A stretch of 62,783 nt of DNA, filler included, from Globobulimina sp. (lineage: Eukaryota): NCBI GenBank assembly GCA_003354225.1. It is 44 parts of 44 records of this genome, joined end to end, with 100 filler letters (N's around TTAATTAATTAA, not from the genome) between each part and the next. Parts side by side here need not be neighbours in the genome. Positions count along the whole stretch, not along the records: positions 45,746 to 47,074 come from PIVH01018559.1; 43 more parts are not named here. One strand, given 5' to 3'. The notes below the pieces were generated by a model. The model had not been told where the DNA came from. It saw nothing but the letters and a program-made list of their open reading frames with translations, and did not search any database. The position numbers and the translations under genes are program-made. This document shows, one piece after another, positions 4,291-51,359 of the stretch. Each line of letters starts with the position of its first letter. Position 1 is the stretch's first letter.

Positions 4291-4644
4291 ACAAAAAATA
4301 TAAAAGATATTTTACAAGAGACTATAGATTGTGTTAGTATGTCTGACGAACAACATACAGAAATAAAACAGTTTATTTCTGCGTATTGTGTGAAAAATTC
4401 TGTTAAAGACCCATTTACACTTGAGTCTATTGGCATAAATAAAGCATTCAAGATTAACAGTAAGAAGAGTTTCGAACATGCCCTGAGAGATTCAGGTATG
4501 TGTTCAAAGTCAGCTGCGACCTATCTTGCGTCATTTTTTAATATAGGGCGGAGCGATTCTGCGCGAAAAGATGATAGCTTAACTAGTACTAAAAGTATAA
4601 TGAACGAGCTTAAAGCATTTAATTCCACCCTGGAGAAATCTTAA
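4291..4644 (+). CDS. Phage prohead protease C-terminal region, partial
   Basis: FEHALRDSGMCSKSAATYLAS resembles the HK97-type protease tail; its stop overlaps the capsid start (TAATG). Confidence 0.6.
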   Translation, partial: TKNIKDILQETIDCVSMSDEQHTEIKQFISAYCVKNSVKDPFTLESIGINKAFKINSKKSFEHALRDSGMCSKSAATYLASFFNIGRSDSARKDDSLTSTKSIMNELKAFNSTLEKS

Positions 4645-5620
4645 TGAAACACGCAAAACTAGCTACACTTGTAGCATTCGCCTTTCCAACTGCCCTTATG
4701 GCATATGATGCAGGCGCTGAAGACATCGGAGCGTTAGTCGCAGAGTTACGTAAAACCCACTCTGCGTTAGAACAAAAAATGATTCAAATGGATGACACTA
4801 AGGCTATTGACGCATTAACGTTAAAGTTGAATACAATCAACGACAAACTTGATGACCAAGAAAAAAAATCATCTGAGTTAACTGCAACCATTGAAGCTAA
4901 AAAAGCAATGGAAGCAGAATTAAGCGAAAAAGTTGATGCAATTGAAAAGAAAATGCTCCGTGTTAAAAAAGGTACCGATGAAAAATCAGTCCTTCAAAAT
5001 GAACTTAAATTCTTAAATGATTTTGCACGCCGTGGCTTCACCACAAATAGCGAAGGTAACGTTGAACTTAAGGGCATGGACGGAAATAATGTGTTCACCG
5101 ATGTTGAGCGTAAGCAGTACTTGCGTTCGGATAACAACGCTGACGCTGGCTTCTTAATGGAACATTCGTTTACGGATACCATTCTGAAAAACATTACTGA
5201 AATCAGTCCCATCCGACAGCTTGCAACCAGTCGTCGTATTGATGCCTTAAGTGCTACTGAATACACGCGTGACTCACTGTTAACTTTCTCTGAAAATGGC
5301 GAAGGTGTGACTGATTGGGCACCATCTAATTCAACATATGGTAAACTTAAAATTCCAGTGCATTCAATGCAGGGTAAAGTTGAGATTACCACTCGTGCAT
5401 TACTTGGTTCACGTTTCAACATGGAATCTGAAATCAATTCAGACTTCATGGAAGCTCAATCTGAGTTGCAAAATCGCCGTTTCGTTAAAGGTGACGGTGC
5501 AGGTCGTCCAACTGGTTTCATGACGGACCCTCGCGTCGTTCGCCTTAATTCTGGAATCGCTAACTCGTTTGACTTTGATAATGTCATCACTCGGACTGGT
5601 GAACCTAAGAGTGGCTATAA
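4644..5620 (+). CDS. HK97-fold phage major capsid protein, 3' truncated
   Basis: Coiled-coil delta domain, then DAGFLM, ISPIRQLA, ITTRALL, FNMESEI and FVKGDGAGRPTGF. Confidence 0.9.
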
Positions 5621-20020: not shown

Positions 20021-21350
20021 GTTAATGTTCCACTTGATGAAGTACCAATAATTAAGTCCGTTCCAAATCCAACAGTTCCGGTAGAGGTTCTGTTAATTGA
20101 AAAGTTTAAAAGGTTTTCGTTGCCACTTGTAAAATACAATGTACCTAAAGCTCCTGTTCCTGTTACTTGCATAACACTTGTAATACTACCTGAAATTGTT
20201 CCTGTTCCTACACCAGTTCGGGCAACTGTTCCATTTAATGTTATAGTCTGTCCATTAATTGCAAATGGGTTTTGTTGTAGATCAAGTACTCCGTTTATAA
20301 CTATATCATTACTGAGTGTTACACCACTGGCATTTGAATTATTTATTGTTAAGTTGTTTATTGTAGTTGGCAGGTTAGTTCCTGTTATTTGTGCCCCAGA
20401 ACCATTATATGTGTAATTAGCACCTACATTAAAATCATGGGTGCCTGATGTTTGTATATTATCATTTATACCATTAGCATGTCCAAGTAACAAATCAGCG
20501 GTTGATTCAATGGTAAAACTTCCTGTTCCAACAATTTCATAAGCACCACAGTCCAAAGTACCCCCACTTTCAACAATTACTGCTCCCGATATATTCCAAT
20601 TTGCATTACCAGTATATGTATCTCCATTTTGGATAATAAAAGTATGATAATCAGAAGTAAAATCCAGAGGGTGAGAACCTGTACCACCCGGATTTGTCCA
20701 CCAATTATTAACATCATTAGGATTAGTATTCCCAGAAGAATAATAAGTTGCAATTGGAGAGGTATATTCTATCCATGTATTATCCGCAATTACATCTACT
20801 TCGTTCCAGTAATTGTAATAACCAGCTACACCACTGCAAATCCCAATATCAACGCCAGTATTGTTAATATCTTCTGTTCCAAATTTTAAAACAATTTTAT
20901 TCGAGGTCTCATAAAAACTAACTTGAATGTTAACATATTGTGCATCATTCCAATCAATTTCTATATTATTATATTCGATGGTAAAAACCTGATTTGGTGA
21001 AGTTCCAGTTACAAGATATCTAATATATCCACCATTATCACCTACATTACCATCTGCAGTAGCAAGTGAAATAATTTGTCCCAATGTAATTTCACCTGTA
21101 GACAAATCAAAGTCTCTTGCCGTTCTCCAATTTGTAATTGCATTTCCATCTAAACGAATAAAACCGTTTGTACAGACACTTAAAACATCTGTAGTACTGT
21201 AGTTATTATCATAAAATGAAAAGTTAAAAGGCCAATTTAGTGTAGCCCTGGCATCATCACCAGAAACTATATCGTTTCCTCCTGAACAATCTATCCAATT
21301 ATAGGTGGTTCCAATATTGCCTGTTGTTGTACTGATATTTATTGTTTTGG
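20021..21350 (-). CDS. Large bacterial secreted beta-rich protein (Bacteroidetes T9SS-substrate type), internal fragment
   Basis: Intronless frame open across the contig, G/T/N-rich; FQVxFYE-like IQVSFYETSNKI, YYSSG..NNWWTNPGGTG, YTYNGSGAQITG. Confidence 0.7.
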
Positions 21351-32884: not shown

Positions 32885-33492
32885 TGTGAAAAGTAATTCG
32901 TCAATTGAGAACCGCGCAATGTGAGTTGGGTGGCGTTATGTAAATTGGATTTGGGAAGATGAAAATTGATATATGAATGATGTGGGACACCACCGTAATA
33001 TGTTATGTATTCGCTCGTCAGCGCATTTGTCGTATTATATGTTTTGGTAATATATGATTCGAACTTTGAATTGTATTTATTTGGGATATCCCAATTTACA
33101 TCACATTCAATAACATATGGTGTATTATCCTTCTCCAATTCCTCCGCAAACTCATCATTGGTCTCGCGCGCCAAATCGTGCGATGACTTATAGTCGGCGA
33201 ATTCGTTTAAATTGATAATTCTATCAAAACGTACATTCTCATCCAGTTGGGTGTCGTAATCACCAGTTACCTCATCCTCAAGCGAAAATGTAATAGTTTT
33301 ACCCCCACCCGCGTCATATTTATTTGTTACAATAGATTGAGGTATAAATGTAGTGTTTATGAGGGAAATGGTTTTTATATTAGTAAATGTATCTGTATCA
33401 ATTTCATATTCACCCACGTTTTCAGACGATTTTCTTTGTGTACTATCAATAACAATTAAATTTCGTTTGATTTTTGTGGATTTTATATCCAT
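32885..33492 (-). CDS. NCLDV-like protein (DUF5901/minor-capsid-like N-terminus), partial
   Basis: LIVIDSTQR..YEI..FTNIKTISLINTTF; paralogous to the divergent neighbouring gene. Confidence 0.55.
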
Positions 33493-33522
33493 GAATATAT
33501 AATATATAACATAATACTTTAT

Positions 33523-34213
33523 ATGAATGACGTTGACTATGTACCACAGATATATACTTCAACTAGGAGAACACTCATTAATATAGACAGTTCGCTGAGG
33601 GATAAAAACGCGTATCCAAATCAAAACTCGTACGAAATAAAATTAGATAGAACTTTTGACAACGTTAAAATTGTTAATCTAATAAGTACGGAATTTATAA
33701 ATACGGAGTTCACAATAGTTGACACACCCTCATCCGCGGCAAACAATAAAATTGAATTGACCATAAACAATGATATTACGATTATCATAACCATACCGGC
33801 GGGCAATTATACTCCCGACGAATTGGAGAAGGTTATCAATGAACAAATGGATGACCAAGTTCCCCAACCCTATCGTGTTATACTTGATATAAACGAGGAA
33901 ACGGGATATGTTACGTGGAAGGCATATAAGTCATTTGATTTAGTAAACCCATTTAGAAAAACACGTTATGGGCAAATTGGAAATGCGAAATATTATGCGG
34001 ATGGGGCAAATATTTTTAGGGAAAATACTGATGCGACCGATAACAGATACACCGATTATAATATTCCGGCATTTTTAACACAATATGTTAATGTTGATAT
34101 TAACGACCACGGATTTGTTGGGGGGGATGCGATTGAAATAAATGGAAAAAATGGAGTTGTAAGCGACTTTTTGGTGGAGAATAACTCATTTATCATCAAA
34201 ACAAATGATGCTA
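33523..34213 (+). CDS. NCLDV-like protein (DUF5901/minor-capsid-like), partial
   Basis: LINIDSSLRDKNAYPNQNSYEIKL..FDNVKIVNLISTEF..NNKI..IPAGNYTPDEL; intronless. Confidence 0.65.
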
Positions 34214-37071: not shown

Positions 37072-37658
37072 NNNNNNNNNNNNNNNNNNNNNNNNNNNNN
37101 NNNNNNNNNNNNNNNTTAATTAATTAANNNNNNNNNNNNNNNNNNNNNNNNNNNNNNNNNNNNNNNNNNNNCGTTAAAATAAGTTTGTATCCAGCATGTA
37201 CCATCAATTCTGGACGTGTACCAACTGCAATCAGGTTCTGAAACAAAAGGGATCGAAGACATGATTTTGCAATAAACAGTCTTTTTAAAAAAAAGTCACA
37301 CTGTGCGAGTGGACGCAAAACATGGTGTCCCTGTTTTAGTTTTGATATGATATTTCAGATGAAACTAAAAACATGTTTTAGATAATTGTTAAATGGACAG
37401 AAAGAACAAAAAAAAACATAACCGTATTTCAAAATTATTCAACAATTAAACGCGAAAAAATATTATAAATCTGACATAATCGAAATTAAAAAACTACCTG
37501 AAAAAAAAACACAAATCGATATCAAACAAAAAAACATTAAACTTTCAGTAGTAACACACACAAAAATCGAGTATACATAGAGCTAGAGACAGAGGTTGAA
37601 CATGGTACGGTTGCAAATGTATTTATTTATTACAATACAGTGTATATAGTGTATAGAT

Positions 37659-38500
37659 TCAAACCAAACCACCTTTCCTTAAATTTGAATTAATTACAAT
37701 ATTCTGAACGTCCCAAAACACTTTGGATATATTTTCTTGATCGGTCGCTGTTGTGATATGAATAAATATCCTCTTAAATGGTACATGATTTCTTCTCTCA
37801 TATTGCGATTGTATGAAATATGCAGACGCCAAATGCGCAGTATCTAAACTTTGTAAATCCGCCACCGGATCATCTACACACATATTAACATAAAAAAAAC
37901 ATTGCGATTTTGCGTGATGCGCAATTATAAATATACATAAATATACAAACCATTTGGTACGTAAACAGACCCCGTATATTCTTCATAATATTGCTGTTTC
38001 TCTGGTTTATATTTATGTTTATTGAAAAACACCGACAATGGTATTTGCTGCGCGACTCTCTGCCGAAACAAGTCATTCTTATTTAAAAACAAAATCATCT
38101 CAGTCTTCTTAAACCATTTACTGTTACAAATCTCTTCAAATAACTGCAACGATTCCAACATTGCATTCTTGCATTCATCCTCAAACAACACCGCACAAAA
38201 ATGGTTCAAGGCAGCTACAAAAATCACGCAAGTCACGCCCTCAAATAATTGGATCCATTTCTTTCGTTCATTGCGCTGTCCGCCAACATCAAAGATATGG
38301 AAACGAACATCGTTGATCATATAATTGGCCTCAATCAGCCCAGTTGTCCTTATTCTGCATTTTAAGTGGTCCTCTTGATTTGGCTCGTATTTGGGATGGA
38401 AGATTTGCTGCGATTTATTGAGGAAGAAATCCATATTCTCGATGATGGAGAAATACTGTCGCTTACCGTACGTAGCTTGGATTTGCGGCAATTGCCATAA
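37659..38500 (-). CDS. Heterotrimeric G-protein alpha subunit, 5' truncated; intron 37950..37874
   Basis: RIRTTG, DVGGQRNERKKW, FLNKND, TTATD..VF, C-terminal LRKGGLV; 77-nt phase-1 intron. Confidence 0.95.
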
Positions 38501-45745: not shown

Positions 45746-46070
45746 TGAGATCTCGTCTACATTTGTAGCAGTCTTCGATCCTTTGAGCATAAACATAGAG
45801 CAGAGTGAAAACGGCCACAATTCTACCCCAATTAACTTTGCCATCTTCGAAACATTCTACCAAAGCTTGATCCACCTTGTCCCCAGTGAGATTTTCTACA
45901 GCCGAATGATAGAACTCCTCGTGCTCTTGCAGCATCAGCTTAATTTCCTCAAGCATTTTATCCAATACGGGGTTAGAAATGGAGCAGTTTAATTGAACAC
46001 CTGCGTCAATTACTTGTACTACCAACACTTCGAGAGCCAAATCGACATCTTTTATTATATTATCAGCCAT
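45746..46070 (-). CDS. Bcl-2 family protein (probably viral), 3' truncated
   Basis: BH1 motif ECFEDGKVNWGRIVAVF; helical N-terminus; intronless. Confidence 0.8.
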
Positions 46071-46131
46071 ATTTTAACAACAATCACCACAAAACCGTAC
46101 CTAAATGGTATATATATATAATCACTGCATC

Positions 46132-46665
46132 CTAAGATTCATCTCCATCTCTGATGATGCCTCTGACTTTCTCCAAAGCTGCACCCATAAGATTACGGCC
46201 TACCCATGCCTTTGGGTTCAAGGCCTTGGTATCGGTCAACCGTAAACCTATTGACCACACCTTGTCTGCTGCTCCGCATTCGGCCAGTCGGTTGTCACCA
46301 GTAGCCAAAAGACGTTCCTTGGCTTCTCGGTTTTGATTGAATTTGGCCCGACAACCTGTCTCCATAACCCTCGATCTGACCATACTCCAACGAGCTTCAT
46401 CATATCCCTTGACACTGCGACCAAACTTCTTCTGTAGTGATGGCGACTTGGTTCTCATAATCTTGTTGGCAGATTTGTGGTCTCCAAAAAATAACGCTTT
46501 CTTGTGTTGAAAGTACTGCTCGGTGCAGTTGAATTTCGTTTTACCAATTTTGAATGGTGATATATAGAAATTGCTGAATATTGGACGTCGACCATAAAAC
46601 AATTCCACAGTTTGAGCAACATTTTCGGGATTTACACCAACAATGACCCCAGGTTCTTGAGCCAT
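46132..46665 (-). CDS. NADAR (YbiA-like) family protein
   Basis: FSNFY, EQYFQHKKA..F.D, KKFGRSV, AKFNQN, LLATG..LAE..DKVWSIG, GRNLMG..L.KVR. Confidence 0.92.
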   Translation of the reverse strand: MAQEPGVIVGVNPENVAQTVELFYGRRPIFSNFYISPFKIGKTKFNCTEQYFQHKKALFFGDHKSANKIMRTKSPSLQKKFGRSVKGYDEARWSMVRSRVMETGCRAKFNQNREAKERLLATGDNRLAECGAADKVWSIGLRLTDTKALNPKAWVGRNLMGAALEKVRGIIRDGDES

Positions 46666-46931
46666 TATTGAACACTAAACACTTACACACCAAGTATATA
46701 TATACCTATAGGCATCAAGATTCATCATTGCCTTCATCTAGAGCATCGCATTTAGTATACTTTTTGTTTGTGAGGCATAAATAATGTGCAATGCCTGCAT
46801 ATAGACTGCCTTGAACTTGCTATAGTTATGTATGCACCGACCTTATTCGGACATCAAGAATTTACAATGCCTGCATCTCTAGAGTGCACATATTTATATT
46901 GGATCCTAGGACTCACTGAATCAATGTCAAC

Positions 46932-47063
46932 ATGTTGGATTTATTACCATATGGTGTTTTGACTACCCTGTGTTCCTATATTGATTTGGAATCTGCAAAA
47001 TCTTTGCGTTTGGTGTCCAAGAACCTGAAATGGATGGTGTATGATTTGGTGATTAGGGAGTAA
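46932..47063 (+). CDS. 43-aa F-box-only protein, or first exon of an F-box gene
   Basis: MLDLLPYGVLTTLCSYIDLESAKSLRLVSKNLK matches the F-box consensus. It is below the ORF-track cutoff. GTAAGT at 47060 could be a splice donor. Confidence 0.65.
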   Translation: MLDLLPYGVLTTLCSYIDLESAKSLRLVSKNLKWMVYDLVIRE

Positions 47064-47174
47064 GTAACTTGACTNNNNNNNNNNNNNNNNNNNNNNNNNN
47101 NNNNNNNNNNNNNNNNNNTTAATTAATTAANNNNNNNNNNNNNNNNNNNNNNNNNNNNNNNNNNNNNNNNNNNN

Positions 47175-50031: not shown

Positions 50032-50840
50032 TTGACACATATTTCATCAATACATATTGAACATTCTTTGTCTTGCGCCAATTGTGCATCTAATACAGTT
50101 GATATGCCTTGGAAATATGTCTCAAATGTTGCACTGCCAAAGAAATTATATTTCGTCCTTCTTTCATTTGTTTCTTCTATGTCCTGCGGAAGATTTGGTT
50201 GTGGCTCTACCGATATTGGCTGATTTGGCTCAATTAACTGCGGTTCCTGATATCCATCATCATGAATCGGACTGTTTCCATTGTCTGTATTCCATGGTAA
50301 AGCACGTGAGTCCGATTTAAAAATTAAATGAAAATGTCCGAACTGCTCCTTACTTACAATTATAACCAATGCTATGTTATAAATGGCAACAAAAAGAAAT
50401 CCAGTGAATAAATGAAAGCTTGCATATGTATTCTTGCATGAATGTGGTCGGCTTGATGCAACATATACCATTTTTATTAGAATATAAACAGAATATACAG
50501 CCCATAGACCAATGGTCAAGGACCAATTGGATAGAATTGAGTGTGCAGTGAATGAACATTTTGAGTATCGTGTAAGTGGAGAGGATCCACAACAAATATT
50601 TATTATTTGTGCATACATTACAAACCATAATATAAATATGAAAGGATTGATAAGAAGATAGATTTTATATTCTAAAATATTTGCACAATCAATGATGTTC
50701 CAACAGAATGACATTAGAATCATTGGATAGATGAGATCAATGATGATTAATGAGAGCCAGAATTTTAACCTATGTTTATGTATTATGGCTTGCTTCCAGT
50801 GAATCCAAGCGAAATTTGGAGGCTCTGTTGGCTGTGACAT
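50032..50840 (-). CDS. Multi-TM protein with a C-terminal RING start, truncated
   Basis: Four hydrophobic helices, then ECSICIDE at the contig end. Confidence 0.65.
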
Positions 50841-50892
50841 TCACTGTATCCAAGTCTCAGAAAACACTAATACTCAAAAAAAAAAACACTAA

Positions 50893-51359
50893 TTAAGTCT
50901 CAGAATGCTCCATCACCAAATCAAACAATGCAGAGGCTTGTTCTTTGTTAAATGTCTTTCTTTCTTTGGTTTGAACTGCATGGTATTCTTGAACCATTGG
51001 CTCAATCTCCATTTCTTTTTTATTTTCGATTTCTGTTTCTTTTTCTATTTCCTTTTCATCCTCTTTTCTCTCAATATCATTATCCTTCGCATTCTCATTA
51101 TTTCCATCCAATTGCTGTTTTATTGCGGACCGAATATTTTTAGAGATTCTAATCAAATCCTCCGAACATTCCCAAATTTCATATTCCTTCAACAGACTCT
51201 CAAGACATAACTCTCTAAAAAATTGAGGGAAAACCAAATGTAAATCATACTCTTCATCCACTCCAACCAATAAATGCAAGCATTCCAATACAATTTTCCG
51301 TATTTCCTCATCATCAAATCTCAGTTTCTCAACGTTCATATATTTCACCAATAGCACAC
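50893..51359 (-). CDS. HGH1-like C-terminal region
   Basis: R..DEEIRKIVLECLHLL..WE.SEDL resembles the HGH1 C-terminal domain. Confidence 0.45.

Follow-up and report, generated by a model that had tools for sequence, protein, structure and literature searches.

A distinct subfamily of Bcl-2 proteins beside a NADAR presence/absence variant in a Globobulimina assembly

A small closed subfamily of Bcl-2 proteins

Analysis of 62,783 nucleotides of the Globobulimina sp. assembly GCA_003354225.1 (the whole stretch is referred to below as the window) revealed a contig, at positions 45746-47074 (PIVH01018559.1), that carries the greater part of a Bcl-2-family gene, a complete gene for a NADAR enzyme and a short F-box-like open reading frame (ORF). 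All three genes add new members to families already known, among which the Bcl-2 proteins constitute a distinct subfamily. As to their origin, we lean, somewhat beyond an even chance, towards a gene-dense part of the nuclear chromosomes of a marine eukaryote, with fast-diverging multi-copy gene families. An earlier inspection of this DNA (henceforth the sequence-only reading) had taken the contig for a fragment of a large DNA virus of an invertebrate; its placement of three ORFs (Bcl-2 with the motif NWGRIV, NADAR and F-box) within 1.3 kb agrees with the ORF coordinates and the Pfam results obtained here.

The Bcl-2 ORF runs on the minus strand from an ATG at 46070 and remains open to the contig end at 45747, which gives 108 codons, including NWGRIV. 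The encoded fragment scores above the gathering score of the PF00452 profile (33.7 bits against 31.4, E 5.5e-8), and the 146-aa copy on a closely related public contig of 3321 bp (termed here L001), which was retrieved when metagenome contigs were scanned with the Bcl-2 alignment, reaches 48.6 bits. The end of the contig cuts the window gene before the BH2 motif and the hydrophobic tail, both of which are visible only in L001 and the other relatives; the L001 copy extends 38 residues further, includes a BH2-like PWIRNRGG and is still open where that contig ends. The identity of the gene proposed by the sequence-only reading is thereby upheld, its completeness is not (108 of about 160 codons). 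In the 108 codons shared by the window and L001 copies there are five synonymous changes and one conservative change, which argues that the genes are under constraint.

A word-indexed search returned 10 relatives of 142-167 aa, 41-69% identical, encoded on ENA and Logan contigs of 0.6-3.1 kb, all of them with a precomputed PF00452 match. All 11 aligned sequences have the W, G and R of BH1, and the BH2-like PWI..GG is nearly invariant among them; the family is further characterized by a distinctive conserved N-terminus (IIKDxDLALEVLVVQV), conserved Cys residues and a hydrophobic tail. The two motifs by which membership is judged are thus both present, BH1 (NWGR) in the window ORF and BH2 (W..GG) on L001 and in the family. 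When the 11-sequence profile was compared with 1.84 billion representatives, 52 matches were found at E<=0.001, of which 10 had E<=1e-30 (counted as 50%-identity clusters, three of them being query rows); below these the values jump from E 1e-32 to 1.2e-9, for a fragment of 56 aa, and then to 4.6e-9. Judged by this profile search, the proteins are a small closed new subfamily, apart from all other Bcl-2 proteins. We met the subfamily only in ENA, Logan and public whole-genome shotgun assemblies, with one near-identical piece coming from a run labelled as marine metagenome. Scans of IMG/VR with the single Bcl-2 protein and with the alignment yielded no confirmed relative, and a scan of the GTDB genomes with the alignment yielded none.

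Among PDB sequences the profile matches mouse and human A1/Bfl-1 (1.4e-8), as well as Bcl2L10, Bax, Bcl-x and the vBcl-2 of Kaposi's sarcoma-associated herpesvirus (KSHV). P0009, a full-length relative that shares 68% identity with the window fragment, was modeled with AlphaFold2 from the 11-row alignment, at a predicted local distance difference test score (pLDDT) of 78.3 and a predicted template modeling score (pTM) of 0.75. The top 50 PDB matches listed by Foldseek for this model are all chains of the Bcl-2 family (TM 0.56-0.84), the best among those listed being zebrafish NRZ (6fbx, TM 0.72/0.77, root-mean-square deviation 2.4), followed by Mcl-1, A1 and KsBcl-2. The sequence-only reading had let its assignment stand or fall with a Bcl-2 fold; the helical bundle is indeed recovered, in the model of P0009 and not of the truncated window protein. 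A language-model search agrees with the assignment and lists poxvirus Bcl-2-like clusters at 0.88-0.90. On the strength of the model, together with the profile and the motifs, we regard the window ORF as a real gene of the Bcl-2 family. The best structural matches are pro-survival members, which points to a possible pro-survival action.

Like Bcl2L10/NRZ, A1/Bfl-1 and Mcl-1, the family combines a PF00452 match, the NWGR of BH1 and a BH2-like W..GG with a predicted helical bundle, a small size (about 160 aa) and a hydrophobic C-terminal tail. Unlike them, it has the distinctive N-terminus and conserved cysteines described above and forms a closed subfamily that is intronless, multi-copy and fast-diverging (members 41-69% identical to the query); its modeled relative is just 13-21% identical to the proteins of solved Bcl-2 structures. 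The viral homologs (KsBcl-2 of KSHV, A179L of African swine fever virus and poxvirus proteins) share the fold (KSHV vBcl-2 1k3k against the family profile, E 5.9e-5; 7qtw, TM 0.64), but are no closer to the window family than the cellular members are.

Organization of the contig and the NADAR presence/absence variant

The window (positions 1-62783) consists of 44 contigs sorted by length, from 1330 to 1328 bp, with N-TTAATTAATTAA-N linkers between them. The contig discussed here is one entire contig of 1329 bp (GC content 0.407) bounded by linkers on both sides, so that its neighbors in the window are uninformative and no feature can be read across the linkers. Exact-match Logan contigs from sequencing runs were laid over it, one such run being termed here X1. 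The following features were delineated:

45746..47074, no strand: whole contig according to the contig map, with runs of N and TTAATTAATTAA at both edges
45747..46070, minus strand: Bcl-2-family gene, first 108 of about 160 codons (PF00452, 33.7 bits against 31.4)
46071..46131, minus strand: spacer of 61 bp from the NADAR stop to the Bcl-2 ATG, with a TATA run at 46109-46120, about 37 nt ahead of the Bcl-2 ATG
46094..46696, no strand: presence/absence segment of about 600 bp, comprising the NADAR 5' leader and coding sequence (blastn blocks, X1 joint, alignment of upstream regions)
46132..46665, minus strand: complete NADAR/YbiA-type gene, 177 aa and TAG (PF08719, 148.4 bits; TIGR02464, 136.9 bits)
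46666..46931, no strand: promoter region from which NADAR (minus) and the F-box gene (plus) diverge (repeat and upstream alignments)
46932..47059, plus strand: F-box-like exon 1, 42 codons and 2 bases if spliced (three F-box models, all below cut-off; the frame resumes on L001)
47060..47074, plus strand: GTAAGT at 47060-47065 as a candidate 5' splice site, with the start of the intron; the contig ends 9 bases further on

L001 is 92-98% identical to the window contig and preserves the order of Bcl-2, promoter and F-box, with the sequence from 46697 onward being 85-92% identical. NADAR, however, is absent from it: the blastn blocks 45746-46093 (97.7% identical) and 46697-46800 adjoin there. One X1 Logan contig likewise shows a joint from 46090 to 46697, with 28 other letters between. 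Alignment of upstream regions shows that the Bcl-2 promoter of L001 is the NADAR-type upstream module of the window joined to the Bcl-2 leader. NADAR is no fixed member of a cassette but a presence/absence variant the size of a gene, bordered by two promoter-like repeats, and the idea of a three-gene cassette put forward in the sequence-only reading is weakened by its absence from so similar a contig.

Each of the three genes has its own TATA-like element, 30-45 nt ahead of the ATG. Within the divergent region 46666-46931, a 25-nt unit occurs three times (46713-46737, 46776-46800 and 46852-46876), and there is a TATA run at 46695-46704. A promoter-like module of about 66 nt recurs with 79-85% similarity at L001 1336-1401, L001 2737-2802 and window 46697-46800, and is placed alike, in distance and orientation, before Bcl-2 and an ORF of 107 aa (ORF107) on L001 and before NADAR in the window. 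The copy at ORF107 is inverted relative to that at Bcl-2 (pair I1), and there are direct repeats both in the window (D1) and in L001 (D2). This arrangement suggests that cassettes were exchanged or duplicated along with their promoters. By string comparison, loose ends of X1 contigs match the module copy before ORF107. Another X1 joint, from 45847 to 46474, has a side of 21 nt, which is too short to interpret, and we draw no conclusion from the two gaps (46106-46150 and 46646-46690) that the X1 Logan contigs leave uncovered, nor from run X4, which shares its sample with X1 and covered no part of the contig. A candidate relic of the 3' end of a second NADAR gene upstream of NADAR (...DES-stop) was dropped, because the same words are part of an intergenic repeat unit of 63-76 nt.

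The remainder of L001 contains two tandem tRNA genes, tRNA-Leu(TAA) at 660-744 and tRNA-Leu(CAA) at 783-865 (Rfam tRNA, 55.6 and 48 bits), whose conserved arms are 87-93% alike and each of which is followed by T5 or T6 within 15 nt. The pair is flanked by two orphan ORFs, and the stop codon of the F-box gene is about 0.8 kb away. An ORF of 180 aa (ORF180) has no match in Pfam, PDB, PHROG, NCBIfam or IMG/VR, and a scan of IMG/VR with a 38-nt tRNA stretch gave no confirmed relative.

The NADAR enzyme

The NADAR ORF (46132..46665, minus strand) encodes a complete protein of 177 aa, ends with TAG and lies 61 bp upstream of the Bcl-2 ATG, and the spacer 46071..46131 confirms the distance given by the sequence-only reading. 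It passes the curated profiles PF08719 (148.4 bits against 35.1) and TIGR02464 (136.9 against 73.7), the latter being the NCBIfam model "riboflavin biosynthesis intermediates N-glycosidase". Further matches are to phrog_1017 (150.8 bits) and to PDC-M42C, a PADLOC candidate (142.5 bits); the anti-phage NADAR model NF053876, which has a cut-off of 240, gives just 41 bits. In the PDB the protein comes closest to 8bau (1.2e-20) and to YbiA from E. coli (2b3w, 3.9e-12).

Residues E49, K56, K79, G82, R83, Y88, W93, R97, E129, D134 and W137 are invariant in six members of the family. 8BAU is the structure of the Phytophthora nicotianae NADAR with ADP-ribose (excerpts of PMC11543638), and nine of its ten contacts (K50, K75, G78, R79, Y84, W89, R93, D130 and W133) are identical in the window protein, the tenth, D86, being replaced by Glu. 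The spacing of E49 and K56 is that of the catalytic E88 and K95 of the E. coli C7 NADAR (Glu-x6-Lys; excerpts of PMC11543638), and the Glu in the RLAEC stretch appears to stand where members of the YbiA class have one (excerpts of PMC11125620). Catalytic and ADP-ribose-contact residues are thus present as far as alignment to 8BAU and the C7 NADAR tells, and by its sequence the enzyme is a YbiA-class NADAR. Excerpts of PMC11125620 and PMC11543638 report for this class both N-glycosidase action on intermediates of the riboflavin pathway and hydrolysis of guanine-linked ADP-ribose, the latter demonstrated for the Phytophthora enzyme.

Five relatives are 61-73% identical to the window protein and occur on small ENA and Logan contigs. 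A scan of IMG/VR with the alignment identified three loci, 35-39% identical, whereas the single protein used as a query found no confirmed relative; prokaryotic relatives are 29-42% identical, the lowest value being that of a fifth prokaryotic locus (L011, 29%), and the best viral and prokaryotic relatives together span 35-42%. A tree of 13 rows, built without eukaryotic references, unites the family with 98/98 support and gives it a long stem. The window NADAR thus differs from 8BAU and YbiA in belonging to a separate long-stem clade and in being a presence/absence variant beside Bcl-2, and its activity is predicted from the conserved residues.

The DarT1-NADAR pair (DarTG1) and the orphan NADARs of phages belong to the same superfamily, as the matches to phrog_1017 and PDC-M42C illustrate. 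There is, however, no ADP-ribosyltransferase domain in any ORF of the contig or L001, and while the window enzyme is of the YbiA class with Glu, the partner of DarT1 is of the BC4488 class with Asp and the phage class has His (excerpts of PMC11125620). A DarT1-NADAR pair is ruled out by the absence of an ADP-ribosyltransferase nearby and by the YbiA class of the enzyme.

An F-box-like exon and its probable continuation

The third ORF (46932..47063, plus strand) has 43 codons, and its TAA stop (47061-47063) lies within the sequence GTAAGT (47060-47065). Scored as exon 1 alone, it stays below the gathering scores of three F-box models (PF00646, 16.0 against 20.5; PF15966, 15.0 against 32; PF12937, 14.3 against 24.3), all of which fall on residues 2-38 with E 0.012-0.036. 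The F-box identity advanced by the sequence-only reading is therefore favored by the concurrence of the three models and weakened by their scores; from the sequence, the match is likely an F-box, although unproven. It shares with known F-box proteins the N-terminal pattern LLP...L..L....L.LVSK..K, to which the spliced model described below would add about 255 further residues, and departs from them in its sub-cut-off scores and in a C-terminal part that matches no family.

L001 carries the same 43-codon ORF with two synonymous and two non-synonymous changes. There, a TTTTCAG acceptor 49 nt 3' of the ORF is followed by 68 in-frame codons up to G|GTGAGT, and a 46-nt intron (GTGAGT...TTTAG) by 187 codons up to TAA. 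Because the last exon lacks any Met and has only 8 open codons ahead of the TTTAG acceptor, it cannot stand alone, and intron 2 is, from the reading frames, well supported. The three joined exons are free of stops over 900 nt and would encode about 299 aa, with introns of 49 and 46 nt. We thus consider it probable that the F-box ORF is exon 1 of a three-exon gene. Against this, the L001 copy has no GT at the donor of intron 1, so that this putative intron rests on the GTAAGT of the window and on the frame. Where the sequence-only reading had left open whether the ORF ends at the TAA or is spliced at GTAAGT 47060, the frame on L001 favors splicing and the missing donor there speaks against it. 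Alternatively, the downstream gene may begin at the Met of exon 2, leaving a free-standing 43-codon F-box ORF. Under either gene model there is no need for the miniature F-box acting as a decoy of SCF that the sequence-only reading had proposed, and the ORF is more likely the first exon of a gene that encodes about 299 aa and has two short introns of the spliceosomal type.

In the public annotation of L001, the last exon is represented by no more than a 180-aa piece that starts at a TTG; a 67%-identical paralog exists, and there are many variants of the F-box region among the X1 contigs. The C-terminal part has no match in Pfam, PDB or PHROG, a scan of IMG/VR with exon 3 gave no confirmed relative, and an AlphaFold2 model of the exon-3 domain from a two-row alignment has a pLDDT of 29.8. 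After the stop of the F-box gene on L001 (1620-1680, minus strand) there is a 16-nt direct repeat and then a hairpin with a perfect 6-bp stem, possibly a signal of transcript end.

Origin of the contig

Nuclear DNA of a marine eukaryote, our somewhat preferred reading, fits the setting of the contig in its assembly, and the likelier carrier is then the window's own compact eukaryote. ORFs of at least 90 codons occupy a median of 84% of each of the 44 contigs and 65% of this one, and 20 of the 44 hold at least two such ORFs. The compactness is nothing special, the gene density being typical of the window contigs; nor is the short spacer before Bcl-2 unusual, since two same-strand ORFs at 50032-51359 (154 and 269 codons) are separated by 55 nt from stop to ATG, which shows spacers of such shortness to be normal for the assembly. 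In dinucleotide distance to the rest the contig ranks 23rd of 44, the extremes being a contig with a DUF5901 ORF and a bacterial-like one, both described below. The overall GC content and that at third codon positions (GC3) of the three genes are 0.37-0.46, compared with 0.22-0.52 in 20 other window ORFs, mostly with eukaryotic Pfam domains. Correlation of codon usage does not discriminate (r 0.55 for this contig, 0.53-0.64 for the DUF5901 and bacterial-like ones). The exact-match Logan contigs have a depth of 3.3-6.1 over unique parts, in line with a thinly covered large genome. The spliceosomal introns, TATA elements and T-runs of the tRNA genes would all point to nuclear host machinery. The sequence-only reading had held that extension of the contig into intron-rich animal DNA with cellular orthologs would speak against a virus; introns and tRNA genes do occur on L001, whereas its neighboring genes are orphans without recognizable cellular orthologs.

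A number of observations weigh against this preferred reading. Pooled with L001, the contig has a dinucleotide delta of 0.080 (mean 0.059, 95th percentile 0.090 for triples of other contigs) and a trinucleotide value of 0.181, against a 95th percentile of 0.179. The share of N, K and I in its proteins is 0.17, compared with 0.23 in the rest of the window. The promoter words GATGAATCTT (found twice) and TATATATATA (three overlapping places) are, within the window, almost confined to this contig, and inspection of 17 other upstream regions in the window showed no comparable strong TATA. The sole well-supported intron elsewhere in the window, in a G-alpha gene at 37172-38500 (PF00503, 213.7 bits), has about 97 nt and the form GTCTGT...TGTAG, after which the canonical C-terminus follows in another frame; it contrasts with the 46-49 nt and the GTAAGT/GTGAGT donors of the F-box gene, although one intron is here compared with two. 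A first intron scan (GT[AG]AGT with 60 open codons on each side) had given one doubtful candidate in the window and was too strict, as the GTCTGT of the G-alpha intron demonstrates. A 139-nt piece with one difference was found in a run labelled as another organism and four pieces in a marine metagenome, all pieces being 95-100% identical; such near-identical pieces elsewhere would also suit a virus or a contaminant. The neighboring genes of L001 have no match in Pfam, PHROG, NCBIfam or PDB, the NADAR family is a weak sister (70/89) to two NADARs from IMG/VR, one on a 333-kb contig and one in a giant-virus metagenome-assembled genome (MAG), and L001 lacks the GT of intron 1, as mentioned above. 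Finally, Bcl-2 is described as a metazoan family of obscure origin (excerpts of PMC8998228), which sits badly with a protist carrier.

Several of these points would be accommodated by a nuclear-replicating large DNA virus, or an endogenous viral or mobile element, with the Bcl-2, NADAR and F-box paralogs as host-manipulation genes, a possibility that we consider rather unlikely. Summed gene lengths amount to about 74% of the contig and, with the tRNAs, of L001; a homologous upstream module of about 40-66 nt is common to unrelated genes (NADAR, and Bcl-2 and ORF107 on L001); the families are multi-copy and diverging (10 clusters for Bcl-2, five relatives for NADAR, F-box-region variants in X1); and neither the orphan neighbors nor the near-identical pieces, which turned up in a marine metagenome as well as in runs that carry two organism labels, would be out of place. 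Pairs of tRNA-Leu(TAA) and tRNA-Leu(CAA) like that of L001 are common in AT-rich giant viruses, and a giant-virus-like contig (32885-34213, PF19254) is present in the same assembly. On the other hand, the 4.6 kb examined on the contig and L001 with Pfam and PHROGs contain no viral hallmark gene or virus-specific family, barring the match of NADAR to phrog_1017, which is weak evidence of absence, and the scans of IMG/VR found no relative of the Bcl-2 protein, the C-terminal part of the F-box protein, ORF180 or the tRNA stretch. The viral NADARs, in spite of their weak sister position, are at 35-39% identity no nearer than the bacterial ones at 29-42%. Two spliceosomal introns in a single 900-nt gene would be unusual for a virus, and the TATA promoters and T-runs suggest transcription by host polymerases II and III, which makes a cytoplasmic giant virus unlikely. 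The low depth and the mid-range composition, compared with the clear outlier that is the DUF5901 contig, also speak against a virus, as does the report that among giant viruses Bcl-2 occurs with those infecting vertebrates (excerpts of PMC8570155). None of these tests, on hallmark genes, IMG/VR relatives, gene density or composition, supports the fragment of a large DNA virus of an invertebrate postulated by the sequence-only reading.

Less likely again is DNA of a small marine animal sampled together with the main organism as prey, host or free DNA, in which case Bcl-2 would be an ordinary, if divergent, animal gene. The metazoan distribution of the family (excerpts of PMC8998228), the nearest structures (the animal pro-survival proteins NRZ/Bcl2L10, Mcl-1 and A1), the occurrence of NADARs in non-chordate animals (excerpts of PMC11543638 and PMC11125620), the pieces from a marine metagenome and from a run labelled as another organism, and the amino-acid make-up and promoter words unlike those of the rest of the window are all compatible with such an origin. 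They have to be set against a closed family that, among 1.84 billion representatives, is separated from every other Bcl-2 protein by a jump in E value (1e-32 to 1e-9), neighbors none of which is a recognizable animal ortholog, and a composition that fails to separate the contig from the window. Furthermore, L001 has five genes and two tRNA genes within 3.3 kb, which is far denser than known animal genomes. That the arrangement of three genes is an assembly chimera of unrelated reads strikes us as very improbable. The contig is short, the depth low and the families repetitive, X1 has many variant contigs and two joints, and none of the listed Logan pieces bridges 46106-46150, so that the junction between the NADAR stop and the Bcl-2 promoter comes from the assembly alone; but the order Bcl-2, promoter, F-box is reproduced at 92-98% identity on the independent L001, exact-match X1 contigs tile 46184-46625 (within NADAR) and 46697-46959, and one of 570 nt extends beyond the contig start.

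Other contigs of the window

The contig 32885-34213 contains two divergent ORFs with ATGs 30 nt apart, one of which matches PF19254 (DUF5901, 26.7 bits against a cut-off of 26.4), a domain that we take to be associated with giant viruses. It has the second most deviant dinucleotide signature and looks like a giant-virus fragment; a single-protein scan of IMG/VR with the DUF5901 ORF found no close relative. An ORF with the phage capsid domain PF05065 (65.6 bits) at 4291-5620 indicates that the assembly also contains phage or bacterial DNA. The contig 20021-21350, filled by an ORF of 442 codons without a Pfam match (GC3 0.18), has the most deviant dinucleotide signature of the 44 and is probably from a different organism, perhaps a bacterium. 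The most deviant trinucleotide make-up is that of 1431-2760, with an ORF of repeated proline-rich units (INLPDPI..RDYPPRSDPA; GC content 0.436), probably a repeat element.

Proposed roles and implications

If the contig is nuclear DNA of a marine eukaryote, the carrier would be the AT-rich, intron-poor, probably protist organism that forms most of the window, or a co-sampled eukaryote, and the three would be separate genes, each with its TATA-like element, rather than one functional cassette. The Bcl-2 protein would be a small pro-survival-type protein residing in the mitochondrial outer membrane or the endoplasmic reticulum, with its groove holding BH3-bearing partners. NADAR would be a free-standing YbiA-class hydrolase that, its catalytic Glu/Lys pair and its residues for binding ADP-ribose being preserved, strips ADP-ribose from DNA guanine or clears reactive intermediates of the riboflavin pathway. 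The F-box exon would begin a protein of about 299 aa, presumably a substrate adaptor of SCF with an orphan C-terminal domain. All three families would be multi-copy, fast-diverging and lineage-restricted, with gene cassettes gained and lost between shared promoter modules and NADAR as one such variant. A joint role in cell death or in defence against toxins, like the identity of the carrier, is something that we infer.

The presence or absence of NADAR between duplicated promoter modules offers a clean small case of gene-cassette turnover. As for Bcl-2, the subfamily sits in DNA that matches an AT-rich, intron-poor, probably protist assembly in density and composition. A keyword search of a limited library turned up no paper that describes Bcl-2 in protists or in their viruses. 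It is possible, if somewhat short of an even chance, that we are dealing with an expanded, fast-evolving family of small, tail-anchored Bcl-2 proteins outside animals and their viruses, encoded in the nucleus of a marine protist with a compact genome or by its nuclear DNA virus or endogenous element, in gene-dense islands whose shared promoter modules allow cassettes of Bcl-2, NADAR and F-box genes to be swapped; it is mainly this prospect that makes the contig worth following up. If the carrier is a co-sampled animal, the family would be divergent but ordinary. If it is a protist or a virus of protists, the proteins would bear on the origin of the Bcl-2 fold and provide a set that can be tested, and the control of cell death by proteins of the Bcl-2 type, perhaps coupled to a defence against toxins that ADP-ribosylate DNA, would be no invention of animals alone.

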